In this document: positions 1,226-55,822 of the stretch, piece by piece
How the letters are laid out: each line of letters opens with the position of its first letter
Numbering within the stretch: position 1 is the stretch's first letter
Assembly (NCBI GenBank): GCA_951406725.2
Contig: OX597816.1
Span: forward strand, 78,120,001-78,184,000
DNA: 64,000 nt
Reading direction: 5' to 3'
DNA from: Octopus vulgaris
Lineage: Eukaryota
Program-made: the position numbers and the translations under genes
The notes under the pieces: generated by a model
Database searches by the model: none
What the model saw: the letters and a program-made list of their open reading frames with translations, nothing else
What the model was told of the DNA's origin: nothing

Positions 1226-4116
1226 TATATGAATCCATGAAAGGAAGAGTTGAAGGACTTAGAGAATAGTGTGAGGTATAAGGATAGCAGTGCACAATGC
1301 TTCCAGTAGAACTCAGACATCATAAGTTTATTGCTAAATCTACTATGCCCGTCATTATTGACATTGGACTTAAGAACAGCACAGCAGTGATTTGTGAACT
1401 AGAGAGAAGTGGAAAATATATTAATATGGCAAACACATGTAAGAGAAATACCATAGCTGAGGACAAAAAAACTAATCCTCAGTGAGATTAAAACAAAATA
1501 GTTACTGTAAAGTTGGAACGGCTACAGCTGCGTCTAGTTTGGTGTGGTGGCTGCAGGGATGATGACAAGAAAAAGTGTGCCACAGTATGGGCCAAAAAGC
1601 CTGGGCATTCCCTAGTAGCATGCTGCCAAAATTAAAGAGATCTCTAGTTGACAACTGAGAAAATTAACACACACACAAATACACACAGGTATGCATGATT
1701 ACAGACATAGACATGTTGCATGTCTATATAATCATGCATGGTATGCGTCCACTCAGAATCTCACAAGTAGGGTGTCCTGCAGAAAAACTAAGGCCAGATT
1801 TGGAATCAATAAATAAATTGAAATAAACAAACAAAACAAATACCATTTTCATCCATTGGGTCTCAGAAGATTCTCTACTTCTTTAAAATTCACTTCTAAT
1901 TATTCAAGATATTGAGGTGAAATTTGATATACTATTCAATAATACTTTACTGATAATTTAATAAGTTTTATTAGCCTTGTAGCTGTTCAATTACAGGAGG
2001 TGCATAATTTAGGGTTTGAGAACAGAACATTTTTGAGGTGGGGTACAGGGTTTCAAAAATCTTTAGTGTTTATTAGGAACAGAAATTTTTTTAGGAAGAA
2101 AAGAATTTTCATGAAGATTAGGAAATTATTATAGGGGCCAGAAGATTTTTAAATTTTAATTTTAAATTTGTTTTAAGAAATAATTACATTGATATTGATA
2201 ATATAAATAAAATTATCGATTTGTTTGAATATTTATATTTTATACTAATTTATGCAAAAGTTTTACTGTTTTTATAAAATTAAATCAATATCAAATGAGA
2301 TACTTTTCCATTATTTTTTCTAGCATAAATATTCTTTTATTCTCATTGCATGACTTACTTTGCTTCATAAAAAACATTCTATGACTTTATTTATAAAGCA
2401 AATCAAGTCTGTGTAAAGTTAGTTTTAATTTTAAACCTATAAAATGATGAGCAATTTACCAATGTTAAATAATTTTTTCAATTTTCAGTTTCTGTATCTT
2501 CTTCAGTATAAAATAATCATGTGTTTGTATCTGTATTCATGATTATGTTTCTGCTCAAAAACTTGACAACATGTTGCCATACAGAAAAATTAGGGCCAAA
2601 TTTAGAATTAGAAAATCAGATAAAACAAACTAGACTCCATGCTGACAACTATCCAAATCTTCATGATAACTGAAACAAAATTCCTTTAACAAAACCTAAC
2701 AGAAGACTAATGTGAAGTTTGCAATGGAGTTAAAGAGAATGTTCTGCATAGCAACCACAACAGTAACATCACACTTTTTTGGATGTGTCTGATTGTTCAG
2801 GAAAGAGCTACATAGTTAACAGTTCTTAAATGTTTACTCAACAGGTTAAACTGTCCTAGCTACAGCATCTTCAGGTATCACAATAACACTACTTCAGGGA
2901 AGGCAAACAACATAGCACATTCAAGATTCCACTCAACAATTGCCCATGAGACCAACCAACAATAACAGATCACAGGTTCTAATTTTCAGACTCAGCAAAA
3001 TAATAATTTGCTTAAACTACTGTGAAAAATAGTATTTAAATTATTTTAAATGTTCAGGAAAAATCAAATAGTTAAAATATGTTTGATAAACTATAATAAT
3101 GGATTGTATTTATAACAATTTTTATTTCTAACATTAGCATATTACATATGTACATGCATGTGTGTGTAAGACTATTTAATTAAAGCAACCTCAATATTTT
3201 AATTGGTATTTATTTAGCTGTTCAGATTAGTTTCAAAGAAACCATATCTAGCTTCATTACAATCATATTCCCAACACTAGCGGTAAACAAGCCAAGACAG
3301 AATCACAAATATATGTTTATATTGTTTACTGCAAAACGCTTAGCAATCCCATCTAGGTTCTCCCCTTTTACTAACTTTGACCTTACTTTGTATGTCTGCA
3401 TAAAAACACTTTTTACCTTTCATACCAACCAGTTGGTTGTAACCATACAAGAGCACTATCATCAAAATATCTGCTAAAAACTGAACCCAAATCACTTGAG
3501 TGAAAGCCAGAAATAAGGTTAGAAAATATAAACTTATTTTCAGTTCAGTCCTGATTTACTCATTACTAAAGGAGAAACAATATAAATTCTATATTTATAA
3601 TAAAGAGCACACCTTTGGTTACATGTAAGTAAGATTTGTAGGCAGAAAAATTTGCTGAAAAGCAATATAGGTTTTACCTCTAAAAATAGAAGCTAGTTTT
3701 AAAAGCAAATATGTTTTTCTAGACATCATAAGACCAGTTTTGTAGGATACATTGTAGGTATGATGTTAAAAGCAGTCATGAAGTTTCATTTTTAATGAGT
3801 GAAATAAAGTGTTGCCTCTAGATTTAACATATTGTTTTCCATTCTTACATGAAATTCACATTGTCACCTTAACATAACTCCTCCAACTGGCTATCAAGTT
3901 TATAGGTCAACTGTATGTCATTCCTGACATAGCAAGTCCTAGTCTTTCAGAGTAATATAACTCAAATATCTTTAATATAACTAAATATCATGAAAACAAG
4001 TATTTTCTACAAATTAATTTTTGTGGTAAAAGAAAGAGGTTTCAATGCTGAATTTAACATAAATTACTCCTACTTGATTAATCACAATATATATATATAT
4101 TTCTAAATTCGGACTG

Positions 4117-4165
<49 letters not shown>

Positions 4166-6252
4166 AATCCTTCTGAAAATACTTCTTTGGCAAGTTGATT
4201 TTTCTTTCAATACAAAGTAATGACAATGTACACACACACACATTTCAGTATCCAAGCATTATAAACAAATCCTCAGTCTTCATTAATTTGCTACCAAGCA
4301 AAGCAACTGAAATATTTTTTAAAATCCATAATAATAAAAATAATTTTGCAATATAATTTAAAAATCAATTATTTCCTTTATTTAGAAATATAGAGTAATA
4401 AAAATTTAGAACATAAATTAAGAACAATCCTCTACAAAATCTGTAATTTATAAAGAGACAAAGTCTTTGTGCTTTGTTAAGTGGACATGTGACAAGGACA
4501 TAAATACAAGTCTACATTTTTGTTATAACTGCTATCCAAACCTGTAATTAAAGCAACAGAATAGAAATATGTTCAAGTGAGAAGTGCTTATATTTAAGTG
4601 TAATAGTAATACTTATAACAAATAAAGTGGAGTATTTTGTTGACTTTGAAAACCACCTTATATATATGTGTGTGTGTGTGTGTGTATAGACACATATTCT
4701 GGAGTGGTTTCAATGAAGGAGCAAATAAGACTGCTTTTACATGACTAACTTTCACATAAACTACTGATAGTTGAAATATACCTATTAAACAGTATCCCAA
4801 AATTATATCGAGAGGTCAAGCATATGTTAAGTGTTTTCTAAGTGGAGAAACGCTTGGTAAAATCTGAGTAAAGATACTAAGTCTAAATCTTGAAATGTTT
4901 ATATTAACGCAACATTGTAACCTTTATCCAAAAAGAGCCAACATCTATCTTTCCACTCTAAAACAAAACTTAAATGATGATAAATGATAATGCCTACACA
5001 ATACCACATTTTCAGACATCTTAATCTGTATCAATTCATCTGTAATGTATATTATTGTAAGACTTGACCCATTTGTCACAAATCCACCATCCCCATCCTT
5101 GCTATTGCTACCCTCAATTTTTCATTTAAAATGCATCATTTACACACATTATCTGTCAATACTAACACTATCAACTTTTGCATACACTAATCAATAATTC
5201 CAATATCCAGTTGTTTATTCAACACAATATGTACATATATGCAATACATATTAATTATCTACCATACAAATTACTGCTTGTATGAACTCTAATAAAAAAC
5301 CAACTGCAATCTCACATTATAATTAATAACTATATATCTGTCCTACATAAGAAAAACTGATGTAAAAACACTTAAATATATAATTATTAAAACTACCTGT
5401 AAAAAATAAGTATAAAACTAGCCACTTTTGCAGACAACAATAAAGAAAAAATGATATGCCATGTAGTAGATCTAGGTGAAAGCAACAAAGTAAATCTTAG
5501 CTATACCAGAACTTCAACATCAAATTCTACCCTTTTTTAAAAAAAACATAGGTCAGAATGAAGAAGTTGATCATCATCCATGACGATGATCATGTTATTG
5601 ACAAAGTATGTAATATTTCTCTTCAGTACAGCGCATGGAAAAGGTATAAAATCTGCAGACAAAATATGAACAGAGTAATAAAAATTGTGATGCTCAGAAT
5701 ATACTTTTCTCTTAGTAACTGTGACTGGCTGGGAATCAGTGACTAAATGCAGCAATATATTTTTCTTCCTTATTGTTTTACATCTTTCATTTTTCTTAGA
5801 AGCAAAATAAGAAATTTTAAGATTTTGACAGTTAGAAGCCCTTCCTGAAGTTACCTGCTCAACCATGAAATAATAGTAACACCTATATTTTAGCCAAGTT
5901 AATTAAGGATTATCAATGTCTCTGTTTAAGGATATAGCAGCATGGCCACGACAAAGTGTGAACTAATCTCAGCGTTATTTCTTTCTCATTTTGCAAACAT
6001 TTTGCCTCTTATAGTGTAACAGTGAAACATTTTCTAAATATGCAAAGCCCTGCATGAAGCAAGTTTATCCCACAATAGGTACGTACTGTGCAGCCAATAA
6101 AAAAGATTACAAGAGAGAATACTGAATAATCTATATAAACTAATGATTTTGATGATAACTCAAATGACATTGGTAAAAAGTTAATCCTACTGTTAAGAGA
6201 CACAAATTCAATGTATGCAATCCATTTTTCAGACACAGGATATATATATATA

Positions 6253-6392
6253 TCATCATCATCCTCATTTAACGTCCGCTTTCCATGCTAGCATGGGTTG
6301 GACGGTTCAACTGGAGTCTGGGGAGCCCAAAGGCTGCACCAGGCCAGTCAGATCTGGCAGTGTTTCTACAGCTGGATGCCCTTCCTAACGCC
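6253..6392 (-). mobile_element. RTE 3' tail fragment with (GAT)n end
   Basis: Reverse complement of the GGCGTTAGGAAGGGCATCCAGC...CCCATGCTAGCATGGAAAGCGGACGTTAAATGA tail seen at 23140-23284. Confidence 0.85.
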
Positions 6393-6449
6393 ATATGTAT
6401 ATGAATATTTGTATATGCATGTGTATGCATGCATGCGTATGTGTGTATA

Positions 6450-6484
<35 letters not shown>

Positions 6485-6579
6485 GCATGCGTACGGGTTT
6501 AAATACACATTATTAAATATAATAATGCATACACACACACACATATGTACATGCGTGTATCGATATACACTTCTTTCTT

Positions 6580-7320
6580 TCCTCTACCCACACTATCACA
6601 ATAGTCAGTAGAATAAACTCATAAGTCTTATAGAAACTTGACCATTCTTGCTATTCTTCCTTTCCAATTTGTGGTTTACTATTCACTTAAAAAAAAACCT
6701 TGGTATACCTTTTTCTGTGCCCATTCTAACATATCACCCCACCTCACACATATTTATTACTTACATTCTTATCTCTTCCTACCCCTCCCCTACTCCTCTC
6801 CCATCTGCCTTCATATCTTGACCACCAACACTCCTTTTTTCACTTTCTCTTCCTTTCCTTTTCTCACCTTTTCCTTTGACCTTTCCATATTAACATACAC
6901 ATCTCTTCTCTCCCCTCTATCCACTTAATACTACCAATACATTCTCAAATTTTCATTCACACCACAAGACTCCTTTGAAGGAACAACTCATAGAATCTAT
7001 GTCTCCACACTTTCCATTTGTGATGACAAAATATGAACTCCTATTGGAATTTACACACCACGGACAGGAAGCATTTCTACCACTTCTACGCACCACTTTC
7101 TTGTATAATGGAACTGCAACTATAACATTTTTATACACTTTTATTTTTATTTCTACATTCATTCTATTTCCCTTTATATTCCTTATTTGCTTCCTCTTCC
7201 AAAATAACTCCTCATACAGCACTCTAATCCCTAATATCCCAGAAACAGCTGTAAGACAAACTTTCTCTTTATAAAAGTCCTGAAAATCCCATGCAGCCTT
7301 GGTTTTGTTGTCTCATTTTA
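6580..7320 (+). mobile_element. Possible decayed Penelope-like 3' region with partial hammerhead
   Basis: GAAAC-AGCT-GTA at ~7242-7253 (palindromic stem III plus cleavage triplet); the CUGANGA half is not recognisable. Confidence 0.3.
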
Positions 7321-7350
7321 TTTAACACACACACACACACACACACATAT

Positions 7351-7566
7351 ATCATCATCATCATTTAGCGTCCGCTTTCCATGCTAGCATGGGTTGGACA
7401 GCCAGAAGGCTGCATCAGACCCAGTCTGATCTGGCAGTGTTTCTAAGGCAGGATGCCCTTCCTAACGCCAACCAGTCCATGAGTGTAGTAGGTGCTTTTT
7501 ACGTGCCACCCGCACAGGTGCCAGATGGGGCTGGCAAACGGCCACGGACGGATGGTGCTTTTTACG

Positions 7567-7568
<2 letters not shown>
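7351..7568 (-). mobile_element. RTE 3' tail fragment
   Basis: Highly similar to the reverse complement of 23050-23284; (CAT)n at the left end. Confidence 0.85.
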
Positions 7569-7597
<29 letters not shown>

Positions 7598-8134
7598 GCT
7601 ATTGTTTAATGTCTACTTTTCCAAGCCTGCTTGATGGCAGACAAGGGTATAATGGGGCAGAGTTTTCTATAGTTGGATCCCTTTCGAAGTGATGTAATAA
7701 GTTTATAAAGTGACAAACAGATCAGACATGTTTACACATAAATTATTCTTCATTTTAGGGTACTTACCAAATACTGAACTGGATTTTAATATTATGACCT
7801 GAAATACTCCAGTAATATAAAAGGTATGATGAAAATGCTAAGAATTTTGAATAAATTTTAACAAATTTGCAGCTATATTTGTAAGTTCATGAGTGAAAAC
7901 TTAAATGGAATTTAGGGATAAAATGGGATGCTTTTGAGATAAATTAATTTGATCAAAGTTTACTATTTCCCACCATATATAAAGATAAGTCTATTGGAGA
8001 AAAACATTCCAAAATATAAGTTTGATATTTCCGGAATTGTCTTATCACTATATCTGTTTAAATACAAGGATCATACAACCTTACTTTTTTTTAGTAATTA
8101 GTAAGAAGAGAAAGGTCAGTGCCCACGAACTCTA

Positions 8135-9330
8135 CAAGGGTGGGCTGACTATGAAAGAGTGATACTAGAGCTGCAAAATCTTGCATGCATTAATTTCAAT
8201 GCTTCTTATAAACAAACTGACATGTCACTGTTCAAAGAACACTTCAAAAGTAACTAGTAGCGGCTTCTCTTGAAAATGGACAAAATTTGGCATTGTGCTG
8301 TTATCAAGTACCTGCATTCAATGACATGGTTGCTACATTAGGTGACACTCCAGCTTAAAATGGTGCAAAAGTGAGCAGCTGAATTTAGGAGGAGAATGAA
8401 GAGTCTTGAAGATGACCCAAAGTCAGAATGTCCTGCAACAGCCAACACCAAGGAAAACATTGTGTTCACTTCATGATGATGGATGACAAGCAATTGACTA
8501 TAAATCAAACAGCCAATGCTATTAGCATACCCCATAAGAGAGTTGAGAATATTCTGCACAATGAACTTGGTATGACAAAGGTTTCTGTTTGGTGGGTGAA
8601 ACGTGTAATATCTGATCAAAAGTACACCAAGTTGATCACATCATGGAAAATTTTGACATTGCTTGAGGCAGATCCAGCTGGTTTCTTTGAACATTTTCTA
8701 ACCCTGGATGAATGTTGGCTTCATCACTGAGCAAGAGACAATGTATGATGGAAAAACCACTCCTCACCTGCTCCAAAGAAGACCATGGTCGTTTCATCTG
8801 CAGGGAAGGTGACGACCTTGGTTTTTAGGGTTGCAATAGATATGTTTATTGACTATCTTCAAAAGGGCCATGCCATCAATGGAAAGTACTAAGACAACTT
8901 GCTGAGACAGTTACAAAAGGCTATCAAAGCCAAACGCCCAGGAAAACTGACAAAAGGAGTCTTATTTCATCAAAACAATTCTCAAGCACAAAAGTTCTTG
9001 GTTTCAATGGCTGGTGTGCGTGACTGTGAACTGGTTTATCACCCTCCCTATTCTCCTGATTTGGCCCCCATTTAACTATCATCTGTTCCCCAACATGAAA
9101 AAACACTTGGCTGGGAACCAGTTTGGCAGTAATGATGATGTCGTATTTACTGTTGATGACATTTTTGACCAACAGGCTGAAAGATTCTTCACAAATGGGA
9201 TCTAAGCACTGCAACACCAATGGAAGAAGTATATTGGCCACAAGGAGGGCTATGTTGAAAAATAAACCTTAGTTGATCACATTCCATGAGATTATCTTGA
9301 TCAGCCTATAAACTTTTCAGCTGACCCTCA
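8135..9330 (+). mobile_element. Decayed mariner-type transposon
   Basis: TA flanks and imperfect TIRs (CAAGGGTGGGCTGA / TCAGCTGACCCTCA). Broken frames contain ILHNELGMTKVS.WWV, FLTLDECWLHH, HPPYSPDL-like and LFPNMKKHLAG. Confidence 0.85.
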
Positions 9331-9899
9331 TATAGACCATCCTAAACTTATCAGATTGATGCAGTTGATTTTCAGTTTAAAGATTAGTGGAGGAGGGACA
9401 AACAATGAAAGAAATTCACAAGACTACAATTCTGGGGAGGAAAGATTGAAGCATATATGTTTAGTGGGAAGCGTGGGGATGAAGACTGTAAGGATTAGGG
9501 ATGAAAAGGAGAGAAAATGATGTACATGTTCCCATTTTTAAGTTAATCTCTACAGATTCTCAATAGAATTCAGAGCTAAAAACTGAAATTTATGTGTTGT
9601 GTTTAGTATACAATGTGATTGAAGATAAAAAATAGGTAATGGGTGTATATGCACCCATTAATTGTTATTTCTCTTTCATCAGCAACCACATTCAACCCAT
9701 CAACTATCCACAAACGCATCGCTTAAATACCCACTAAGTTTAGTGGTGTAACATTATTAGATAGACCAAGTTATATATTATACACATTCAGTTTAGTAGT
9801 GTAACAACGTAGATATTATGATACTTGCTAATTTAGACAAGTAGTGATAGAAGAGACAGAAAGAAAAGAAACATTTGAGCCAATAATTGTAGCAACAGG

Positions 9900-11330
9900 T
9901 GACACATAGTTGATTAGTTGTATAGACTTCCTTGTATGTGGGATGTTAGTGTGAATAGAGACAGCAATCTAGCAGATACATGAACAGAATTCCAACAGGA
10001 GTAGCTACACTTAAATTTTAAAGCACATTGATGAGGACCAAAGTATTTAATGGCTCTGAAAAGGAAGCCTAATCTTTTGAATACAATGTTTTTAAGTCAG
10101 ATTTTAAAGTCAAACAGCTCTTATAACTTGGAGAGCTTTAGTTAAATGTTGTTCATATATAAGAAGGTTGAAGTATAAGACTGTTTCCTTGAAACATGCA
10201 AAGAGATTAAGAAGCAACCATACTGTTGAAGAAGACTAGTTATATCATCTGTACAGAAGTGTATGTTGCTAAAAGTAGATCATTTTGTAAAGGTCTTCCT
10301 TTACAAAATAACCTAGGAGACATAAACTGAACCTTGAAGTAAACATGGGTTGCATACAGCCCAAGCACTGCATCTTGTAATGAAGTAGTCTAACATAAAA
10401 TTTTCAATTCAAAAGATGAGAGAGAGGTGATGTCCAGCTATCATGACCTATAACTGAAGGCTTTCCTGATATCAATAGCATCAAGGCTGCTTTTGCTGAT
10501 CTTCTCAAGGGCAAAAAGCTAATGACGAGTAACACAGGAGAACAAATTTCCATTAAGTCTTTATAGTAGCCACACTGGTACTCACTTTAAATGACAAGAG
10601 ATACAGATGAGTCATCATGTCTGTTTCATCACCATTGAAATGATGGTAGTAGTACTTTTTAGGAGTGGGGCAGACACATCATTGCATGTTTCTATAGATA
10701 GACATTTACGCAAAAAGATTAAAATGTTTGGAGGATAGATCATTGTGAGACACACTATTATAGGATAATTATTGCATTCTTGTCAAGAGTGGTTTGCCTT
10801 ACTGGGTTAAAATAAACAGAGAATACTATGAGGATACAAACCATTTAGTAATTGAAGCACTGAGACAGAAGTGCAAACAATCACAGAAACCTTTGATTTG
10901 ATAATTAAACTTACCAAAACCAAAATTCTTCAGAAACAACCATTTTTACTTCCAAAACCTCTTAATTTTTATCAATTGTTTTTAGAAGTAGAGCACTTAA
11001 AAACTGAAGGCCAACATTCACTGCTACTGGGCAAAGTAAAACAGAGTATCCCCTTCCCAATTATCTCTCGCTATTATTTATCAAGCTCTTCATCTTGTGT
11101 AAGTGTGAAACAAACAATTTGTTTGGCAGATGATCTGAAAACAGTAGTGATTATCAATTCATGCTTCTAGTACATCTTTCATGCATACCAAATACTGAAG
11201 GTGATCAATCATGAAAATTTTAACGAGATACCTGCCAGTTCAATCATGCAAAATGAAGTTCACTTTCTTTGCAATCTCACCCTAAAAAATGCTTTCTTGA
11301 ATGGATAACAAAATGACATGGAGATTAAAT
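9900..11330 (-). mobile_element. Highly decayed CR1/L2/Jockey-type LINE remnant
   Basis: Minus-strand AIDIRKAF (RT motif LD..KAFD) near 10460-10480; otherwise degenerate, boundaries approximate. Confidence 0.4.
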
Positions 11331-11727
11331 GAACATAACGACCATAACTTAAAAGCTTTATGTGTTTACATATCAAACTTTAAATTATAAGGAATCAAAT
11401 TTAGACTGATCACCTATAACATGCAATTATGAACTTATTGCTGTAATGAACTTCTTTGGAAGAAGCTGGATCAATGTCTATCTGAAAGATGCTATACTAA
11501 AATCAAAACTGCAAGAAAAAAAAAAAACTGAATAACAGATAGCCCAATATAGTACAAAGTTTATTAAACATTCAAAGATAGACTAAGATTGTGATTAGCT
11601 GCCTTTATTGTTAATGATATTAATCATCATAAACACAAACTGGACTTTTTATCTGTTGTAGTTTTGTGAAGATAAAATACTGAAGATAAAATAAGTTTTA
11701 GATAGTCACACAGTTACATCAAATTTA

Positions 11728-12003
11728 CATCATCATCATCGTTTAACGTCTGCTTTGGACAGTTTGACTGAGGACTGATGAGCCAGAGGCTGCATCAGGC
11801 TCAATCTGGTCTGGCAAAATTTCTACAGCTAGATGCTCTTCCTAACGCCAACAACTCCAAGAGTGTAGTGGGTGCTTTTTATGTGCCACCAGCACAAGGG
11901 CCAGTCAGGCGGTTCTGGCAACGATCATGCTCAAAAGGTGTTTTTACGTGCTACCTGCATGTGAGCCAGTCCAGTGGCACTGGCAACGACCATGCTCAAA
12001 TGT
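11728..12003 (-). mobile_element. RTE 3' tail fragment with hairpin-array units
   Basis: (CAT)n plus tail plus GGTGCTTTTTATGTGCCAC units. Confidence 0.8.
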
Positions 12004-14149
12004 TGTAACTTTGGTTTGGGGTTTTCTGGTTGCTTGAGGTAATGTTTAGACAAAATGAAATGATGGGCACAGCTGACTAGAAACAGAACCTGTTTTGGAG
12101 ACCGTACTTTTAGGCATCAGAAGTAAACACAGCACATACTCACACATACATGCAGAAATATACATATAAAGAGTGAGAGAAAGGGACAGGAAGAGATATT
12201 ACAATTTATTAATCAAACACAACCGATATTAACACTTTCCCCTCTCCTCATATATATAGAGAGGTGGGGAGACAATAAGAGAAACATTAAACTATTTGAT
12301 GTTAGTATTAAATCAGTGATACCAAGTATATGGGCCCAAAGTAGCCTATACCAAAACATCTCATGCCCATACTTTAACATGGTTGGATACAGCTAATCTG
12401 AACAAACTCCATGATTTTTATCGCAGCCAGATTTAGTAAATCTGAATGCTAAAAAGTTATATAAAGTTAGCAAGTAACAAATAGCATCAGATAGTACCTT
12501 GTGCTTGAAAGTTGTTGATGAAAATAGCAAACATCTACAATGATGAATAACCCAATCTGTAGCTATCGAATTATTTGAATAATCAATTCTATTTTGAATT
12601 TTGATCACAGTAAAAGTAAACCAGTTAACAGTAGCAATTGAGTGGCAAAAAAAACAATGGTTACAAGTATTATTATTAGTTTATTTGTAAATAATTGTTG
12701 CTAATAAATCAAATAAAGAATCATAAATAAATGTGTCAATCATTAATATCAGGGATGTCAGATTAACAATCTAACTGGAGAAAATAAACTAACAACAATT
12801 TACAAGTTAGTAATTAGAAGCAAGCCTCCACAAAAATGGGTAGATAGAATATATAAATACATAAAAAAGTGTACAATATTTCATATTTATTTCCTCTATT
12901 CATTCTTCTGTTTATATCTTCTACTTTTCAATATAACACTTTAGTATTATATTTTCACAAAAAAGGAATGTAGCATCTCAAGTCTCGTCAAAAGTTACCT
13001 TAAGAGTGATCATACTAAAATAATGTAACATAAGACAGAAAACGATCATGAAGACAACCCTTCTGGTACTGGTGGCATAATAGAATATACTCAGAATATA
13101 TTATTAAAGAAATAGGTACTAAGTAGAGTTCTTCAGCTGTAAAAATATGCATCCAATCGATATCAATGGACAATATGATCACAACAACAATAATTATGTA
13201 AATGTGTACTTATGTATCAAATGTTAGCTATAGTTGAGATGAACTAACAGTCAATCAGGTCAGCATGAAATATGTTGACATAATAGATAGTTGTTAGAGA
13301 GACTATTTCTGGCTTTGTAGCTACAATTTACAATGTCTTGAGGGAAATATAATTTGACTTTGCTAATAACAAAGATTTTCTTTCAGTATAACAGACAGTT
13401 GAATGACATAATAGAAGTATGCTCACTGGTTATTCAATATCAAAGTCAGTAGACAGAACTTAAGCAGATGAAAACTGGAGACAGCATGCATTGCTTTGAA
13501 GTAGTGATAATGATGCAGATGGAATGAGTTACAAAAAGTAGTCGTGTAAAAAAATTTTTTAAAAGAGTTGGCTATCAAAAGATTTATAAATTTTCATTTA
13601 CAACAACCTGAAACATACATTTGATTTAAATCATCACCTTAAATCTAGTATTTAGATGAATAAGTGTGGATATTACAGAAATTCACCGACTCCGGACTAT
13701 AATAAAATGTCAAAAATATCTATATTTAAAACACTTGGAAATCCTTATAAATGAAATGAAATAAATTTATAAAGTGCAACCTAATTTATTTTTTAATTAC
13801 TGGTTAAGTTATTTAGGTAACCTATATAATACAGTATTTCCTCAGACTGCATCATCTCTTAGGTCAACATACTTATGATATTAGACAAATATTCAATCAA
13901 TTTTGTTGAAAGCCCACTTTAATTCATTCAGATATTTAATTTTTGATTAAATAATATTAGTTGCAAAGAATTACCATCAAGATTATATTAAAATAAACTT
14001 TTATTTGAATTTACTTATGTAATAAAAAAAACATGTCACTTCGAATTTTATTAAACAGAAAATTTAGTTTGAAAATAAAACAAACATAAGACAATAATAA
14101 ACAAAAAAGCCTATAAGCAAAAAGTAAAATTTATGTCTAAATAGTGTAC

Positions 14150-16100
14150 ATCTGAATATTTAAATTTTGCAAATATTTTCAAGGACTTTCTCTTCAGATA
14201 CACAGCAGCAGTGACATTGAACTACTGATACCAAGTCTAAATAGCCATTTTGTAGTGACTCTCAGCAAGAGACATATCTGTTCACTGAACTGATGACAGA
14301 TTCCAGTCCAACTTTACAATAAATGATAAAAACAGAGCTATGTGCACTTGCTCAAAATGTTCAACTGATAGTGGTGCTGGAAAATAGATATAAAACAACC
14401 TTAACTCTTGAAGTCTAGTAATGCTTTTAGAAACTAGAGATTTTGATGAAAATATGAAAAACATAAAAATATAACTTAGAGTTTTTACTGGTTTTCTCAC
14501 TTTCACCTGCCCAGGTCAGTTGAATGCAGGTAATTTCACATATATTTACAAGATATTCATTACAGAGCATGGATTTCATATCTCAGAACTGAATTTGTAC
14601 TTCAATTAATTTCTTTAACTTGAAGCTGCACAACTTTCATTAGAAAAAGCATTCTGAGTTATGCCTTCCATTTGCAGATTCTGTAAGGCCTAACAAAATC
14701 AGTAGTATTTACTCTTATTACAATAATCATGCTCTTGTCATAATCCCACCAGTATGTAGAGACCCTAAATTTCAAATATATCAATAAATTAATGTTTTAT
14801 TTTTTAGTCCTTTCCATTTACTAATGAAAGCATCAAAGCCATGATCAACTATGTGATAACTCCCTTTCAGCACAGAATCAATCATATAAGTAGCTGATAT
14901 GTACAGATGGCAGTGAAGTATCATGAAATTAAGTCATTAATAAATAAAGTAAATCATTAATAAACCATATCCCCAATTCTAACTTGTTGTTTGGAGTATT
15001 AACCTCTCAAACACCCATTCAGCTATTGTGCCTAAAAATCAAAGGAAGAAAAAAGTTTAAGAAATTTACTTGATAAAATGTAAAAATAAACACACAGTAC
15101 AAACAAAGTATTTTGACAAGAAATCCTTTTTAAAATGAGACCACACTTCGTCTTTTCACAGAAAAGTGCTTAGTTCCTGCTTTGCAGACACAAACACCAA
15201 CACTGATTGAATAGTATTTATGCACCAGGCAGGAGTTGTCAATGGTTGTGGTTACTTGCAGTAAAGGCCTTTAAGAGTTAATCTTTATAATTATCAAAAT
15301 CTTATTAACCACTTTGTCAAACTCTATGAAATATATACTAAAACATTTCCTTAGACTTTAGATCTTTTTCATTGAAAACTTTATATATCCATTTAAAAAA
15401 TAAAACCAGATCTCCTGAGTAAAAAAGAAAATTGCAGCAACACTATTATAACAGACAACTTGTTCAATCAGAAGGTAAAATTGTTGGAAATAATTAACAA
15501 ATGCATGACAACAGCATAAAATGTGTTTTACATGACTTGCTTTAGAAAGAATCAACTAGTAATCATCTGTCTGAAATTGATCAGTATGTTTCCAAATCTA
15601 TTTGGTAAGTCTAACTTTGTTGTAGGGACTGTGCCAACTTTTAGCAAATAAATATTCCAACAATAATAGTCAACTCAATGTTGAAGACCACCTATAGTAG
15701 CCAACCTTTTCAAAAGATCCATTAAGCTGCTGATTAAGCTAAGCCAGAAAAACAAAACAATAGAGTATTGTTTCACCTTCTCAAATATATCTTGGTCATA
15801 AGTCACTGAATTACTAATGATACTTCAGTAAAATCGTAAATTTTAATAATTATCATCCTTTGCATTGTTTAACCAAGGGTTAGACAGGTCAATCCATCAA
15901 TCTCCTTTTGTCTTCAACTAAACTTTTATTATATGTACATATATAATAAAGCCAACAGATATTTATATAAATATAATTTCTTCTTGTTTTTTTCAGGAGT
16001 TGGTAATGAATGTGGCAATACAAACAACTTTCAGGCTCCATCAGTTTTATGGTGAAGGAAACTGAAAAATTTCAAAATCAGTCTTGAGACAATAATGTTG
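14150..16100 (-). mobile_element. Possible decayed hAT transposase remnant
   Basis: Minus-strand KHILCCCHAFVN (CxxH motif-like, ~15495-15530) and FPAPLSVEHFEQV (resembles the hAT dimerisation motif P.TS...ER.FS, ~14345-14385), in the expected order. Confidence 0.3.
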
Positions 16101-16316
16101 AGAAACCAATCAACCACTGGGTCTTTACAGTCAGATGTAGACACCAGGGTGGGATGTGGCATTCACCAGGGTTGGGTGTGACAGACATTAAAGCAGGATG
16201 TAGTGTAAACACCAGGATGTGTGTCTGTGTAGACACTAGGATAGGATGTGGTATTTACTTTAATTTTGGTGGACAAACAAACCAATCAACAAACATACAG
16301 AATCTCCTTTTTATTA

Positions 16317-16363
<47 letters not shown>

Positions 16364-16391
16364 AAAATAAAAACATGCTGCCAAGGATTCA

Positions 16392-16475
16392 GCGGTACAT
16401 ATGTTTCGGGCCTTTATTAGACAGATTTATAACAATGCATAATGTATGTCTGTGGCCTTCTTCAGAACTCCGCGC
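16392..16475 (-). ncRNA. Type I hammerhead ribozyme motif (PLE-type), core intact, stem I offset by 4 nt
   Basis: GCGG-aguu-CUGAAGA-aGGCC...GGCCc-GAAAC-AUAU-GUA-CCGC; palindromic stem III ACAUAUGU. Confidence 0.7.
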
Positions 16476-16597
16476 ACAACAGCTTCACACAAGGACATGT
16501 GTTACATCAAAAATTCTTGGTTGGGGATGCAAATGCCCTAGCTCATTCCCCAACCAAGAATTTTTGATGTAACACATGTCCTTGTGGAAGCTGTTGT

Positions 16598-16677
16598 GCA
16601 CGGCTGAAGAAGGCCACAGACATACATTATGCATTGTAATAAATCTGTCTAATAAAGGCCCAAAACATATGTACCGC
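16598..16677 (+). ncRNA. Type I hammerhead motif, G12>A mutant copy
   Basis: CGG-CUGAAGA(16604-16610)-aGGCC...GGCCc-AAAAC-AUAU-GUA-CCG; a CpG-type transition at 16662 destroys GAAA. Confidence 0.65.
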
Positions 16678-16808
16678 TGAATCCTTGGCATCATGTTTTT
16701 ATTTTTGATCAATTTACTCCACCACCTACACCACCAAACGGTATACACAGGTGCTTATAATTATCAAGTACTCACCCCGAATTTATTATATATATATATA
16801 TATATATA

Positions 16809-18487
16809 CACTACCGTCAGAAATTAATTAGCACCCTTGATTTGCTCTTCACTCAAGGTATTTGCTGTCACCTAGTGGCCATATCTCGAACTATTGCTTT
16901 GTTGTGAGTTCACTGTTGTGCAGAACGATGACGTAACGTTGTTTGCAGAGCAGTTTGAGAGTCTACAGCCTAATGATGTGGACATAGCAGTGCAACAACA
17001 ACTTGGAGTGCGGATGCAGACAAATCTTCCTTTGTTTAATAGATATAGGTAGCGCCTCGCAAGGACCAAAATCACACCGTACTAAGTTTTCTCATTGTGT
17101 AAGACGTTTTGAACAGCTCGTAGGTTAATTGAATTGTGTATTTGCAAGATTTTTTTTCCTCACAAATTCTCCTACACTCTGCTTGATGACGTCACTTCCG
17201 GTTCACAAAACTTTCTGTTATACATCAAATAAGGTGAGAAATTCTGCTTTCTTTCTTTTTTGCTTAATGAATAATAACTCATAGCAGTTTTTTTATAGCA
17301 TAACATTATTCAAATGAATAGTTTTAATGAAAATAACTGGTTTTTATCGTTCATTCCTAGATGGGCCCAGGACCTCGCATGACCTTGGAGAGACGGTACG
17401 AGGCTCTCTCGTGGCGTGAGAAGCTGTCGGAGGCTGCAATAGCCAGAAAACTTGGTGTAGCCAGGCGCACAATTCAGTGCTTATTTAAGAAATACGAGGA
17501 AACCAGATCAGCAGCTGACAAAAAGGGTAGGGGACGGAAGAGGCTGACGACCCAGCAGGAGGACCGGATGCTGATCCGAAAGTCACTGTACAACCGAAGG
17601 GCAACGAGCCGGCAACTGGCGGAGGAGATGCAAAAGATGACAGGGAAGCAGTTGTCTACAACCACCGTCAAGACCAGATTACTGGAAGCCGCTCCTTACA
17701 GCCCAAAACCGGAAGAGGCGGCTGCTCTGGCCCCGTGCCCACAAGACATGGACCGTGCAGCAGTGGCAGACAGTGATGTTCACTAACGAGTCGCGATTCA
17801 GTCTCGTCAGTGACAAGCCTGTCCATGTGCGACGCTGCAGGGGTGAGCGCTTCAACAAAGACTGCATTGCTCCCACCATGAAGCATGGTGGGGGTGGTTT
17901 GATGGTGTGAGGGGCGTTCAGCTACAGTGGTGTTGGGCGGCTCTATGCCGTCGAAGGCAACATCAACGCAGCAAAGTACGTTGAGATAGTACGGGATACC
18001 TCTTTTGTGGCGAGGAGTACGTGCTCCAGCAGGACAACGCGCCTTCCCACACAGTCAAGCTCACAACCGGTTTCTTCAAGGACCATGGAGTGACGGTCAT
18101 GGACTGGCCTGGCCAGTCACCTGACCTGAACCCTATTGAGAACCTCTGGAGTCGATTGGGTAGGGATTTGAATGTGCAGCAATACAGGAACCGACACGAG
18201 CTGTTTGGAGCACTTCTTGCTGCATGGAGGGCCATCCCTGCACAGTACCTGCAGGCACTCATAGACAGCATTCTGACCTGCGTAGCAGCTGTCATTGCTG
18301 CCAAAGGAGGAGCAACAAGATATTGACTAAATTTCACGATTAATAACAATTATGTGGTGTGCTGGGATATGTTTTAATAAATTTTTGATTAAAAACGAGT
18401 TCGTTTCTGATAATAAGTTAATTAAATTAAGAAAATGTAAGAAAATGTAGAAATTTGAGAAGTGCTAATTAATTTCCGACGCAAGTG
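16809..18487 (+). mobile_element. Tc1-family DD34E transposon, near full length
   Basis: TIRs CACTACCGTCAGAAATTAATTAGCAC / GTGCTAATTAATTTCCGACGCAAGTG, inserted in (TA)n. Confidence 0.95.
17361..18326 (+). pseudogene. Tc1 transposase pseudogene
   Basis: HTH (IARKLGVARRTIQ), GRGRKRLTT, VMFTNESRF (first D>N), KHGGGGLMV*GAF, QQDNAPSH...SPDLNPIENLW with 34 residues between D and E. Frameshifts near 17690 and 18000, plus a TGA stop. Confidence 0.9.
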
Positions 18488-18810
18488 TATATATATATAT
18501 ATATATATATATAGATGATGGTTTGAAGTGGTGCATAGATTTTATACACTAAGAAAAAGAAGGTAGTCAGGAGTTGGATAAAAACTATTGATTTAGCGAG
18601 TTTGTCCCTTTCAGAGAGTCGTCATGAATGATTTCTTACGGGAAATTCATGTCTTTTATATGTGAGTTGCATAAAAATCTGGAGTTAATTTGGTTTACTT
18701 GGGTTTTGGAAAAAAGATGTTTTGAGAGTGGTTATTTGAAATGTTCTTTGTCATTTTGAATCTATATGTGTGTATGGTGAATTTTTAAACAATATATACA
18801 AACAATTATA

Positions 18811-19345
18811 CACTGAACTGCAAAAGAAACACGAGATGTGATTGTGAGATATGTTTTAATTTCATTATGTCAGAGATAAATTTTGATAGATCTGATAAAG
18901 TCAATTTCTTAGATGCACTTTGACCACAGTCTATGGGTCATTGTCATGTGTTTTGGTGGTGGGTGGATCCAGCACATCGAGATTGTAGGGTGTGACATGT
19001 TCAATACTGCCTATACCCTCCCTGGGTGTTCAAAATAGCTACAGACCGTTGCTACATGAAGTGCATGAGGTGGTTTGCAAATGTCATTGGCACCTGTGCC
19101 TACACCCTGAGGAAAGCTGCTTCCAGTCCCATACAAGTTGTTAGCCTTGGGACCACCTGGTTCAGCCATCTCACTGAATTTCATTCCACAGGTATTCAAC
19201 TGGGTTCAAATCCAGGCTGAGAGCCAGCCATGGCATGATTCTGATGTGCTGACGCAAGAAATCCATGGTGACCCTGGCCACGTGGGAGGGAATATTGTCC
19301 TGCTGGAACACGTGGCTATGTTGATGTGTGAAGAAGGGTATGAAG
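18811..19345 (-). mobile_element. 3' fragment of a second Tc1 family
   Basis: Minus strand QQDNIPSHVARVTMDFLRQHIRIMPWLALSLDLNPVEYLWNEIQ; TA|CACTGAACTGCAAAAGAAAC TIR-like end. Confidence 0.8.
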
Positions 19346-19999
19346 GTGATGTCTTAGGATCTATATCTCTCTCTTCCTATATTCAAATATCCCATTTATA
19401 TTCTGATCCTTTCCTTAAAACACTACTCTCACCTCATTCATATAAACTTTGCTTACTCCTTATAATTTCACCATTAAAATTAAATTGCATGCTTAAATTT
19501 CTTACATTAAAAACTCTTAAATTCTATTTTGGATGCTGTTCTATAACCATCAGCACTCTCACTGTTTTCAAGACCAATTTTTCTTAGCTTTATTTCATAG
19601 TTACGCATTACCACTTCTCTCACTCCACACAGATTACTTTATTGGTACACAAAACTGAATCTTGTCCAATCTCTGCTTTTAATATTTGGTCCCTTCCAAT
19701 ATGAGACTCGGACAATGTTTACAATGAGATATAGTTCTTCCTTCAAAATTTGCAAAATTAGTCAGAAATGAAATTTCTAAGATCTTATCTGATATATCCT
19801 ACATAAATTATCTTTTACTTTCTTACAGGCAGCAAGTATATATGACTGGTACAAGAACTCATTTTTAACTTAATTTCCAGAGAGTGGGGGTCAAATCTAA
19901 TCAATATATTAATACAATTATATGGCTGAAAAGTTTAAGAGAAAGTTTAGCAAAAGAAAACTTGTAGTATTTTAGAATTTAAAAACATCTTTTAACTTT

Positions 20000-20292
20000 T
20001 AGTCAAATTAATCCTATTTTTTAAACCTGGTACTTATTCTATAAGTGTCTTTTGCTGAACTACTAAGTTACAGGAACATAAAGAAACCAACACCAGTTGT
20101 TAAGTGATGGTAGGGATCAAACACAAACATGCATATAAATACACGTGTTTCTTTCAGTTTCAGCCTACCAAATCCATTCACAAAACTTTGGTTGCTCAGT
20201 GCTATAGTTGCATAAACTTGCCTAAGTAACAAGCAGTGGGACTGAACTTAAACCAACGAGTGAGAAGCAACCTTCTTACAAGTCACCATGCT
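20000..20292 (-). mobile_element. tRNA-derived SINE (decayed)
   Basis: Reverse complement of the family at 29979-30370. Confidence 0.7.
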
Positions 20293-20612
20293 AGTGCATA
20301 TATATATAAATGATATGCATGTATGATATATATGACAGGCTTGATACTGAACCTGAAAGCATGTGATGTGAACAACACAATTATATATATATTTAGTATT
20401 ACAAATTTGGGATCTTACCAACAGAACCACAACTCCTATTTCAGTACAACCTTATTGTCTGGAATACACATAGAAAGTTATATCCTATATAATAATAAAA
20501 TAATATAGGCATTTTAAAACCTACTATAAAGTACAATAAAATTATTTTAAAAACTTATCAAATATTTGAAAAATATATAAAAACTTATAAAATATTTGAA
20601 AAAAATATATAA

Positions 20613-22512
20613 TTTGCCAATGTTCTGCGCCGTGAGGATGAAAGACTTGAGGTATTTCGTGTTGCAAGACAGTGTGTGAGAGAGAATCGTGACGTGGTAG
20701 GAGAGAAATGTGTTCGCAAGGATGACGGTTCACTTGCGCTAAATGAGGATGCAAAGAGAGAGGCTTGGAGACGCCACTATGAAAGGTTGCTGAATGAGGA
20801 AAATGAATGGGATAAAGAGAGTCTGCCGAATGTCGACCCAACAGAGGGACCAGCAATCCGAGTTAACAGTTCCTTAGTAGTTAAGGCAATTACAAGCATG
20901 AAAACAGGGAAAGACCCAGGCCCATCAGGAATTACTGCAGAGATGCTCAAAATATCTGGTAGTATCGGCTATAGCCTAGTCACCCGTATAGTTAACCAGG
21001 TGATAGACGAAGGAGTCATACCCAATGACTGGTGTAGCAACATAATAGTCAACTGCTACAAAGGTAAAGGTGACGCCCTAGATACAAATAACTACAGGGG
21101 TATCAAGCTGCTGGATCAGGTAATGAAGGTTACGGAGAGGGTTATAGCCCAATTAATTAGAGAGAGTTAGCTTAGATGAGATGCAGTTTGGGTTCGTGCC
21201 AGGGAAAAGTACTACTGATGCTATATTCCTGGTAAGACAGCTGCAGGAGAAATACCTAGCCAAAGATAAGCCCCTGTATCTGGCTTTTGTTGACATGGAG
21301 AAAGCCTTTGACAGGGTCCCCCGATCCCTTATCTGATGGTCAATGAGGAAACTAGGGATAGATGAATCGTTAGTGAGAGCTGTGCGAGCTATGTACAGAG
21401 ACGCTGCTAGTAAGGTGAGGGTTGGCAACGAGTACAGTGAAGAATTCCGGGTAGAGGTTGGGGTCCACCAAGGTTCAGTCCTCAGTCCCCTCCTATTTAT
21501 CATAGTCCTCCAGGCAATAACGGAGGAATTCAAGACAGGATGCCCCTGGGAGCTCCTTTATGCTGATGACCTTGCTCTAATTGCTGAGTCACTATCAGAA
21601 CTAGAGGAGAAGTTTCAGGTGTGGAAACAAGGATTAGAATCGAAGGGCCTTAGAATCAACCTAGCCAAAACTAAAGTCCTAATAAGTAGGAAGGTGGACC
21701 AATCACAAACGACTTCAGGTAGATGGCCCTGCTCGATCTGTAAAAAAGGTGTAGGTAGAAACTCTATAAGGTGCACCAAGTGTAAGCTATGGACACATAA
21801 GAGGTGCAGCAATGTCAAAGGAAGGCTAACTAGGAAAATAGTTTTTGTCTGTGGCAGATGCTCAGGAGCAATAAACACTGGAAATGTGCAGAGACCAACT
21901 TCTACCACATTCCAGGGAGACAAACTAGAAGTAGTTGATAGCTTCCGCTACCTAGGTGACCAAGTCAGTAGCGGGGGTGGGGGTGCTGAAAGTGTAACTG
22001 CTAGAGTAAGAATAGCCTGGGCAAAGTTTAGAGAGCTCTTACCCCTGCTGGTGACAAAAGGCCTCTCGCTCAGAGTAAAAGGTAGACTGTATGATGCATG
22101 TGTGCGTACAGCCATGCTACGTAGTAGTGAAACATGGGCTGTGACTGCTGAGGATATGCGTAAGCTCGCAAGAAATGAAACCAGTATGCTCCGATGGATG
22201 TGTAATGTCAGTGTTCATAATCGACAGAGTGTAAGTACCTTGAGAGAAAAGTTGAACCTAAGAAGCATCAGTTGTGGTGTGCAAGAGAGACGTCTGTGCT
22301 GGTATGGTCATGTGACGAGAATGGCTGAAGATAGTTGTGTGCAAAAGTGCTGCACCCTAGCAGTTGAGGGAACCTGTGGAAGAGGTAGACCCAGGAAAAC
22401 CTGGGACGAGGTGGTGAAGCAGGACCTTCGAACTTTAGGTCTCACCAAGGAAATGACTAGAGACCAAGACCTATGGAAGTATGCTGTGCGTGAGAAGACC
22501 CGGCAAGACTAG
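20613..22512 (+). pseudogene. RTE ORF2 (RT with embedded PHD finger), disrupted
   Basis: Frameshift in an AG run near 21160 and TGG>TGA near 21334; otherwise open; the endonuclease domain is missing. Confidence 0.9.
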
Positions 22513-22718
22513 TGAGGCCATAACCCGTGGCCTCTACCTGGTATGTAGCCAGTCGACTTATACATACCTTTCCTTCTTGGGACACAAAACTCCACTTGTG
22601 AAGACCCGTTGAGGCAAGTGAAAATCAAAAAATCAAAATCAAAATCAAATCAGATATCAGAAAGCAGAACCAAAATCGAAGTCGCTCAACATCAATGGAA
22701 ATTGCAGCTGTGATACCA

Positions 22719-23122
22719 GTGCCGGTGACAGGTAAGCGAACCATCCGATTGTGGCCGTTGCCAGCACCACCCCGACTGGCCTCCGTGCCAGTGGCACGTA
22801 AAAGCACCATCCGTTCGTGTCCGTTACCAGCCTCGCCTGGCCCCCGTGCCGGTGGCACATAAAAGCACTATCCGTTCGTGGTCGTTGCCAGCCCCGCCTG
22901 GCCCCCGTGCCGGTGGCACATAAAAAGCACCATCCGTTCGTGGCCGTTGCCAGCGCCGCCCCGACTGGCCTCCGTGCCAGTGGCACGTAAAAGCACCATC
23001 CGTTCGTGTCCGTTGCCAGCCTTGCCTGGCCCCCGTGCCGGTGGCACATAAAAGCACCATCCGTTCATGGCCGTTTGCCAGCACCGTCTGGCACCTGTGC
23101 GGGTGGCACGTAAAAAGCACCC
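22719..23122 (+). repeat. Tandem array of 7 units (~61-66 bp) in the RTE 3' UTR
   Basis: Unit core CGTGCCRGTGGCACRTAAAA(A)GCACCATCCGTTCGTG. Confidence 0.9.
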
Positions 23123-23644
23123 ACTACACTCACGGAGTGGTTGGCGTTAGGAAGGGCATCCAGCCGTAGAAACACTGCCAGATCAGACTGGGCCTGATGC
23201 AGCCTTCTGGCTTCACAGACCCCAGTTGAACCGTCCAACCCATGCTAGCACGGAAAACAGACGCTAAATGATGATGATGATGATTTACCTGTTGTTAGTC
23301 TATGGGGAAAGAAGATATTTTTAATCAATGCTACACATGTTTCTGCACAGTGGTGTGTTTTTCCAGGCTATACCTATTACATAAATCCACCAGATAGGTA
23401 GTGAAATTTTGATGTGTTTATAATATTAGTCATTGAGGGTTTCTTTATGCCTAGCATTTTCTAGATATATCGGTACTGTATTTTTAAGTGTTTAATTTTA
23501 TTAATTTAATATTTTAATTTTTTTTATTTTAAAAAATATATTTGTAAGTTATATATTTTTATTTATATTCTTATTTTTCTATTTAATATGTATTAGAATA
23601 TGTAGTTTTAACTTTGATCCGTTAACAATAATAACAATAAGATA

Positions 23645-45031: not shown

Positions 45032-46160
45032 ATCATCGTTTAATGTTCAATCTCCATACTAGCATGGGTTGGACAATTTGACTGAGGTCTGGCGAACCAG
45101 ATGGCCTGCACCAGGCTCCAATCTGATCTGGTAGAGTTTCTACAGCTGGATGCCCTTCCTAACACCAACCACTCCGAGAGTGTAGTGGGTGCTTTTACAT
45201 GCCACTAGCACGAGGGCCTGTCAGGCAGTACTGACAATGGCCACGCTCAAATGGTGATTTTTATGTGCCACCTGTACAGGAGCCAGTCCAGCAGCACTGG
45301 CAACAATCTCGCTCAAATATTTTTCACGTGCCTCCAGTACAAGTGCCAGTAAGGCAACACAGGTAACGATCACGCTCAAATGGTGCTTTTTACATGCCAG
45401 TGGCATGGAAGCCAGTTTGTTGCTCTGCCAACAATCACACTCCAATGGTGCTCTCAGCGCTCCACTAGCACGGATGCCAGTCATTGAATTTGATTTCGAT
45501 TTCACTTGCCTCAACAGGTCTTCACAAGCAGAGTTTAGTGTCCAATGAAGGAAAGGTACGCATTATATAAGTGGGCTGGTTACACTACTAGCATAGGCCA
45601 TGAAGTTATGGTCTCACTTGGCTTGCTGAGTCTTCTCAAGCACAGCATATTTCCAAAGGTCCCAGTCACTAGTCATTGCCTTGGTGAGGCCCAATGTTTG
45701 AAGGTCATGCTTCACCACCTCATCCCAGGTCTTCCTGAGTCTACCTCTTCCACAGGTTCCCTCAACCGCTAGGGTGTGGCACTTTTTCACACAGCTATTC
45801 ACATCCATTCTCGCCACATGGCCATATCAGCACAGTCATCTCTCTTGCACACCACATCTGATACTTCTTAGGTTCAACTTTTCTCTCAAGGTACTTACAC
45901 TCTGTCGAATATGCACACTGACATTACACATCCAGCGGAGCATACTGGCTTCATTTCTTGCAAGCTTACGCATGTCCTCAGCAGTCACAGCCCATGTTTC
46001 ACTGCCATGTAGCATGGCTGTTCGTACACATGTGTCATACAGTCTACCTTTTACTCTGAGCGAGAGGCCCTTTGTCACCAGTAAAAATGGAGCTCTCTGA
46101 ACTTTGCCCAGGCTATTCTTATTCTAGAAGCTACACTTTCAGTGCACCCTCCCCCTTACT
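45032..46160 (-). mobile_element. 5'-truncated RTE LINE
   Basis: TKGLSLRVKGRLYDTCVRTAMLHGSETWA...GRGRLRKTWDEVVK, plus array and tail. Confidence 0.92.
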
Positions 46161-49100: not shown

Positions 49101-49376
49101 ATTATTTATTAATTGTGGTAGAAAAAAAACTTACTTCCACTTTGAAAAAAAAACTTCAACTGCTGAGGGTGATATTTATGCTTCTAGTTTAACTATTAAA
49201 ACTGCAACAAACTGCTCAGTCATTGAAAACATATTCATTAGAAATTCACTAGGATACTTGTCTTACAGCAAACTTAGGACCAGATTACATATGCAAAGCA
49301 AACTACTTTGAATTTAAATTTCTACTCTAAATCAAATGTATTACCAACAACCTTTAATAAAATAGGAATCTAATCA

Positions 49377-49752
49377 GGTGCAGACATGGCTGTGTGGTAA
49401 GAAACTTGCTTCCTAACCACATGGTTCCAGGTTCAGTCCCATTGCATGGTACCTTGGGCAAGTGTCTTCTATTATAGCCTCAGGCTGACCAAAGTCTTGT
49501 GAGTGGATTTGGTAGATGGAAACTGAAAGAAACCTGTTGTTTGTGTATGTGTGTGTGTATGTTTGTGTCTCCCACCATCACTTGACAACCAATGTAGGTG
49601 TGTTTACATCCATGTAACTTAGCAGTTCAGCAAAAGGAAGCAATAGAATAAGTACTAAGCTTACAAAGAATAAGTCCTGGGGTCGATTCATTCAACTGAA
49701 GGTGATGCTCCAGCATGGCCAAGTCAAATGACTGAAACAAGTAAAAGAATAA
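49377..49752 (+). mobile_element. Full-length tRNA-derived SINE
   Basis: Colinear with 29979-30370. Confidence 0.85.
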
Positions 49753-50021
49753 AACCCACTGACCAAATACCATATTTTCCATGTATAGACCAAGATTTAC
49801 ACGAAAAAACAGGTAGGTTGACTTATACACCAAGACAATGACTAAAAGGTCCTCCTGACCCAATGTTTTCACCCATCTGTCAACCATTTTGTAGAAGAAT
49901 GAGCAGAAACATAGGATCAAAAGAATCCTTTACTTTTCAGTGGCGTATAAAACATTATCAGACTGATGTACAGCAGTCCATATAACCAAACACTACATAA
50001 ACATATATATATATATATATA

Positions 50022-55658: not shown

Positions 55659-55822
55659 AGAATACCACTACATGACGTGCAAACATAAGAGCCAATAGTC
55701 ATATTCACATAGGTTGGTCCACGTTGGTGACAGTCAAAGCACTGTTTATTTTGAGACAGAGCTACCATATCACGTAACATTTTAAGGTGTTTTTCATCTT
55801 GACGTCTCTTGTTAGTCGCCAT
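55659..55822 (-). CDS. AGFG1: ArfGAP with FG repeats protein (AGFG1/HRB/drongo-like), coding exon 1
   Basis: Encodes MATNKRRQDEKHLKMLRDMVALSQNKQCFDCHQRGPTYVNMTIGSYVCTSCSGI, an ArfGAP CxxC-x16-CxxC zinc finger closely matching the AGFG1 N-terminus. Good Kozak context (AAGATGG). Ends with CT|GTAAGT donor, phase 2. Confidence 0.95.

Follow-up and report, generated by a model that had tools for sequence, protein, structure and literature searches.

The near-perfect hairpin at positions 16360-16709 of the 64,000-nt stretch of the Octopus vulgaris genome analyzed here (the window) consists, with a probability of about 90%, of two head-to-head copies of the 3' end of a Hydra-clade Penelope-like element (PLE), placed in an intronic (TA)n run probably by one insertion and carrying two damaged hammerhead motifs. 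This reading is supported by the identity of the arms with the pLTR of the element, the high copy number of the latter, the (TA)n flanks, a tail on one side only, microhomology at the junction of the arms, and the frequency of such pairs in the genome. By sequence comparison, both arms come from the 3' end (pLTR) of a young, abundant, and apparently intact Penelope-like family.

The hairpin forms a single stem of about 170 bp. For positions 16350-16720, the minimum free energy is -276.7 kcal/mol (z = -37.7), and none of 100 shuffled sequences folded equally well. An earlier note, made from the letters of this DNA, had described a near-perfect hairpin of 350 bp, and the folding results bear this out. 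The full insertion, however, spans 16360-16784, because the right arm continues into a 68-nt tail that was missing from that description. It lies within (TA)n, with a left (TA)n target flank at 16328-16359 and a right AT/(TA)n target flank at 16785-16808. The left arm (16360-16548, minus strand) is an inverted, 5'-truncated pLTR without a tail. The right arm (16547-16716, plus strand) is likewise a 5'-truncated pLTR and is the only one followed by the PLE tail (16717-16784, plus strand); together with this tail it is 97.5% identical to a full-length element of the same family (L126). The arms overlap by 2 nt of microhomology at 16547-16548. The apparent loop is not a spacer but the end of the left arm, which contains two small insertions there and runs to 16548. 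An extra T relative to a natural copy used as reference (L033) is common to both arms, which fits copying from one template, and all remaining differences from L033 are private to one arm. Gene conversion could likewise make the arms alike. The left arm has four private insertions and the right arm none; this clearly exceeds the 1.0-2.6 indels per kb of other copies. The insertions in the left arm (16360-16548) may be an assembly error in the palindrome or a change induced by the hairpin.

The element resides in AGFG1. A Pfam ArfGap match and tblastn with 40 AGFG1 homologs, the best of which are molluscan, mapped two coding exons to the minus strand, at 55658-55822 and at about 57-149. Positions 150-55657 (minus strand) separate these first two mapped coding exons, and tblastn with the 40 homologs detected no conserved coding exon among them, which leaves room for non-conserved ones. 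Since the mapped exons flank the element and no conserved exon lies between them, the element is located in one AGFG1 intron of about 55.5 kb. The location inside AGFG1 had been proposed before, and the minus-strand orientation of both flanking exons also agrees with the proposal that the left hammerhead lies on the pre-mRNA strand and that its antisense arm is transcribed first. Several other repeats occur in the window. A broken Tc1/mariner-type DNA transposon (16809-18487) directly adjoins the hairpin element in the same TA run; its TIRs are 94% complementary, and it retains HTH_Tnp_Tc3_2 and DDE_3 fragments in different frames. A 391-aa frame at 21337-22512 (plus strand) with RVT_1 and a weak PHD-like finger is a fragment of a high-copy LINE. 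Other long inverted repeats in the AGFG1 intron, at 45106-51028, measure 464 nt at 91% and lie about 4 kb apart; they are a further possible source of dsRNA. The AT-rich, MITE-like fold-back at 57734-58089 has arms that are 81-82% complementary, and no hammerhead was found in it.

Alignment of the two arms revealed a hammerhead copy in each, as the earlier note had claimed. The left copy (16392-16473, minus strand, reading 16473-16392) is on the AGFG1 pre-mRNA strand and retains all core letters, in agreement with the view that its catalytic nucleotides are kept; its expected cut lies between 16396 and 16395. A 4-nt insertion at 16466-16469, which occurs only once in the genome, at this locus, separates the 5' strand of helix I from C3 and displaces helix I. 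The right copy (16600-16677, plus strand, antisense to AGFG1) carries G12>A at 16662 and a G>A exchange at 16600, where the resulting mismatch cuts helix I to 3 bp. Both lesions are CG>CA changes, and G12A is found in 20 dispersed places, including this one. The idea of a single lesion in each arm thus proved only partly correct: the 4-nt insertion on the left and G12>A on the right are present, but there is a second lesion in the right copy (16600), and the left arm has four insertions. Neither copy at this locus combines an intact core with helices I-III abutting it, as an active type I hammerhead does, and both are hidden within the stem. With the mask removed, helix I beside the core of the left copy has a predicted probability of 0.0. 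A scan of the 64-kb window at Rfam gathering thresholds gave no hits. A second scan, which permitted the A-C base of helix II and does find family copies, detected no intact hammerhead partner in the window. Damage is present in both hammerhead copies at this locus, and both are predicted to be inactive. With helix I displaced in the left copy, and with G12A and the helix I mismatch in the right copy, there is probably little left here to switch off. If the 4-nt insertion at 16466-16469 were an assembly error, the sense-strand hammerhead would be intact and its masking would matter more.

The family behind the arms is large. A genome search with the right arm yielded 1,565 candidates, of which 40 were scored; these contained 47 matches that, apart from the self match, were 95-98% identical. 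An exact 29-mer over the intact 3' core is present in 1,735 copies (0 control matches), and a 35-mer at up to 2 mismatches in 2,099, so that the family has at least 2,099 copies. Their 3' end is fixed and their 5' ends are variable, and 63 of 75 checked 3' ends adjoin TA runs. The hammerhead in the pLTR is intact in family copies. A unit of about 4.7 kb with the order pLTR-ORF-3'UTR-pLTR was found in L126 and L099, and open frames of 842 aa occur in four of 12 fetched loci (L115-L118). The 3' UTR of the family is about 2.2 kb long (L033:3560-5755) and rich in pyrimidines and microsatellite-like sequence; it greatly exceeds the 3' UTR of published Hydra elements. At L041-L042 (G000:C1:57294000-57314000), an 8.1-kb tandem segmental duplication with more than 99.6% identity carries one family copy per unit.

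The family has a single ORF of 836 aa, including two low-confidence inserts, and 1,377 homologs of the encoded protein were found at E<=0.001. For the predicted structure of the protein (pLDDT 83), the top Foldseek match is the telomerase RT 3du5 (E 3.3e-9), and the YxDD motif is present in all 46 aligned proteins. Pfam and PDB sequence searches of the ORF itself recognized neither an RT (including RVT_1) nor an endonuclease, and the Pfam GIY-YIG model matched four of the 46 aligned homologs, not the query. The motif order VIY..YIG, R, H, E, N, read by eye, is found at residues 714-815, C-terminal to the RT. At residue 125, ADKTG represents DKG changed to DKT. A CxCX5C linker is located at residue 696, and CxxC and CxH surround the E and N residues; the CCHH motif is absent from the endonuclease, in which a single C lies between VIY and YIG. 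At the place of the RWK motif, the family has RWA or RWT, and RWK is present in a sister family with 54% identity and in 29 of the 46 aligned proteins. The family also has the EN+ PLE traits of partial-tandem pLTRs, variable 5' truncation, an adjacent inverted truncated copy, and a tail at one end. RWK aside, these features mark an EN+ Penelope-like family with a telomerase-like RT and a GIY-YIG-type domain at the C-terminus; the family fits the Hydra clade, an assignment that rests on motifs. Naiad was ruled out by the C-terminal endonuclease and the presence of the hammerhead, and Neptune and Penelope/Poseidon by DKT and the missing CCHH. A MITE or other DNA transposon is incompatible with the variable 5' ends and the RT-encoding parent. 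A non-LTR retrozyme was dismissed as well, because the arms are head-to-head, tandem units are absent, and the sequence is the 3' end of an autonomous element. Hydra-like PLE families of at least two more groups were encountered at L119-L125 (G000 contigs C15, C2, C19, C8, C9, and C12). Their protein identity is about 54% and 42%, and they have long open frames (941-1091 aa) and Asn-rich inserts; six of these seven loci have hammerheads of their own.

The hammerhead motif of the family looks genuine. In sister families of the same genome, with about 54% protein identity, the core is kept, helices I and II covary, and helix III is a palindrome or near-palindrome. Fold prediction assigns very low probabilities to helix I (P 0.003) and helix III (P 0.02) of the family monomer, and the family hammerheads are of the dimer type. 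Such minimal hammerheads (min-HHRs) are known from pLTRs, where PMC4209133 describes dual motifs 100-700 bp apart on opposite strands.

The arrangement seen at this locus recurs throughout the sampled copies. In the first 100 of the 1,735 exact matches as listed, all on contig C1, 14 head-to-head pairs have their members within 1 kb (28 copies) and 10 more at a distance of 1-6 kb (20 copies), versus one tail-to-tail pair and one tandem, that is, 24 head-to-head arrangements against 2 others. Scaling gives roughly 240 short fold-backs genome-wide if C1 is typical, and the hairpin in AGFG1 is likely one of a few hundred in the genome. All 34 pairs, among them this locus, carry the tail on one arm and one arm only; five duplicate loci had been removed from this set, and a paired appearance was the reason for including most of its last 20 loci. 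Given a rough tail frequency of 23/44 in unpaired matches, this outcome has a P of about 5e-11 under independence. The same one-arm tail was observed in all eight simple long pairs, with L099 (three copies) excluded. Tail-less ends cluster at positions 3356-3375 of the reference, and they do so in unpaired tail-less copies too. Subfamily variants are common to both arms of a pair (for example, in L048, L068, L081, and L082), and the junctions of 25 fold-backs comprise 11 with microhomology, 7 blunt ones, and 7 with filler. Substitution rates are similar in paired (12-19 per kb) and unpaired copies (17-18 per kb). CpG decay is not supported as a general driver of these differences: it applies to 15 of 270 differences and 8 of 159 sites, subfamily variants dominate, and the choice of loci was biased.

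These pairs are probably explained by twin priming. The endonuclease would nick both strands of the TA target, and both DNA ends would prime reverse transcription on the same RNA, one of them starting at the tail start site and the other about 68 nt further in. Both cDNAs would stop early and be joined at their truncated ends, and the arms would mutate separately afterwards. According to PMC11167929, the PLE protein PAc cleaves and extends both target strands, and two RT start sites bound the tail. An inverted 5'-truncated copy and a one-sided tail have also been described for PLEs (PMC8557442, legend of Fig. 2). A literature search for "twin priming" of Penelope elements returned no evidently related paper, as far as the retrieved records go. 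In vitro, the reported experiments with PAc revealed no strand difference in the RT start site (PMC11167929), and so the strict one-tail rule is not yet explained by experiment. Alternatively, the hairpin could postdate the insertion and stem from fold-back repair, from template switching, or from a second, independent insertion head-to-head into the first copy. Microhomology or filler at the junctions also fits DNA repair, and TA runs serve as common targets. If a tailed end had been duplicated later, however, the tail would have been copied too or the copy would break off at random positions, and neither is compatible with one tailed and one tail-less arm in all 34 pairs, with the clustering of tail-less ends at 3356-3375, or with the excess of head-to-head arrangements. 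Such a late origin is thus very improbable.

Twin-primed insertion would also account for the masking of the ribozyme. When the pre-mRNA folds back, the hammerhead would be hidden as a by-product and discarded with the intron. In the predicted fold of the pre-mRNA, the stem encloses the left copy completely (helix II pairs and an unpaired core each have a probability of 0.00), and burial is also predicted for nascent RNA that ends 10 nt past the cut site. Self-masking on the sense strand, as postulated in the earlier note, is therefore supported by the predicted folding. The further suggestion that the fold-back is a built-in off switch, and the reason why a ribozyme is tolerated in this intron, is not supported. 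Insertions of the family routinely produce this geometry; the left copy is predicted to be without helix I even when unmasked; and the family motif is of a dimer-requiring type with no intact partner in the 64-kb window. Because transcription of a head-to-head pair meets the antisense arm first from either side, masking is a by-product and is uninformative on AGFG1. The hairpin is not a host switch.

Masking might nevertheless matter at the level of populations, if selection kept self-masked fold-backs in introns over unmasked sense copies. The predicted masking is complete, and the family hammerheads look functional, with their core, covarying helices I and II, and palindromic helix III retained in sister families. 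Two family copies fold as a double hammerhead with -38.2 kcal/mol, compared to -26.4 kcal/mol for two monomers, and hammerhead retrozymes are reported to be depleted in Xenopus introns (bioRxiv 10.64898/2026.07.22.740005). However, single min-HHRs are described as lacking detectable cleavage and dimers as having low activity (PMC4209133), the HHR of PAc is reported to require its protein (PMC11167929), the family monomer hardly forms helix I, and an intact partner is missing from the window. The similar substitution rates of paired and unpaired copies argue in the same direction, and population-level tolerance through masking appears quite unlikely. A related and broader idea is that twin-primed insertions are self-silencing by construction, with fold-backs accumulating in introns from which sense solo hammerheads are purged. 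We regard this as unlikely, and the same doubt applies to its corollary that the strict one-tail rule would fix the mechanism, namely two DNA ends that prime at two different RT start sites. If self-silencing were true, a few hundred near-perfect dsRNA hairpins of 100-300 bp would have been seeded in the genome for ADAR.

The predicted stem agrees with the proposed dsRNA of about 170 bp, which is a plausible ADAR substrate, and A-to-I editing of the folded pre-mRNA would be likely, as it is for other inverted repeats of young age. As editing is general for young inverted repeats in animals (bioRxiv 10.1101/2020.01.19.911685), and as the intron contains other repeats, editing at this locus would be expected and unremarkable. 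Contigs of four presumed-RNA runs that match 6000-23400 derive from the whole family and not from this locus. An A>G difference at 16600 was considered as an editing signal and rejected, because G is the majority letter of the family and editing of the pre-mRNA would read T>C on the plus strand. Among the differences displayed, beyond which there are 114 further rows, no T>C falls within the hairpin, and this speaks neither for nor against editing. Contigs from two presumed-RNA runs (two studies) join 16455 to 16725 and skip 269 nt; in one of four registers, the skipped segment has CT..AC ends (GT..AG on the minus strand). The acceptor lacks a pyrimidine tract, and no similar junction was present among the 126 fetched loci. 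This junction could reflect splicing, a jump of the RT over the hairpin, or a different fold-back elsewhere in the genome.

Among known systems, the Hydra clade of C-terminal EN+ Penelope-like elements (Craig et al. 2021, PMC8557442) is one of the closest. It has in common with the octopus family the RT followed by a GIY-YIG-type endonuclease, DKT, CxCX5C, the lack of CCHH, CxxC and CxH flanking E and N, insertion into (TA)n, and a hammerhead near the 3' end. Published Hydra elements are shorter than 3 kb, whereas the octopus family reaches about 4.7 kb with its 3' UTR of about 2.2 kb, and its tail of 68 nt exceeds the 30-40 nt of published PLE tails. The Hydra clade has RWK in place of RWA or RWT, and the octopus hammerhead differs from those of the clade by about 51 nt between the core halves. 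Hydra-1_Obim from Octopus bimaculoides, listed in the supplement of PMC8557442 with 2,507 bp and unrelated hammerhead helices, is a different family, as its length and the helices in the supplementary table set it apart. In the same supplement, the annotation of Penelope-13_HM includes an attached inverted copy with 5' truncation and one hammerhead motif on each strand.

The pLTR min-HHRs (PMC4209133) resemble the octopus motif in the 4-bp helix I, the extra nucleotide after A9, the palindromic helix III, the pLTR location, and the spacing of opposed dual motifs (100-700 bp). Unlike them, the family has A-C as the base of helix II, with 4 bp and then a long branched extension above it, and damage affects both copies at this locus, which are predicted to be inactive. 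Poseidon PAc from Anolis carolinensis (PMC11167929) is similar in that its tail is bounded by two fixed points, its targets are AT-rich, and both-strand extension is the likely source of two arms. PAc belongs to another clade, however, and its tail lies within the ORF, whereas the octopus tail stops short of the ORF frame by about 60 nt (L126). Non-LTR retrozymes share short non-coding units, a type I hammerhead, and a relationship to pLTRs, but the octopus copies are not arranged in tandem head-to-tail, and their 5' ends vary and extend into the autonomous element. The locus itself is transposon debris and matters little. The family is of modest value as a young, high-copy, apparently intact Hydra-clade element that is longer than the published members. 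Its approximately 2,100 copies are a data set for how PLEs make inverted pLTRs with one-sided tails, and they are also suited to asking whether PLE hammerhead activity suffices for intronic counter-selection. PLE hammerheads on opposite strands at distances of 100-700 bp are already known, as are inverted copies with 5' truncation (PMC4209133, PMC8557442); the hairpin in AGFG1 is a known kind of insertion, made by a new family of a known clade.
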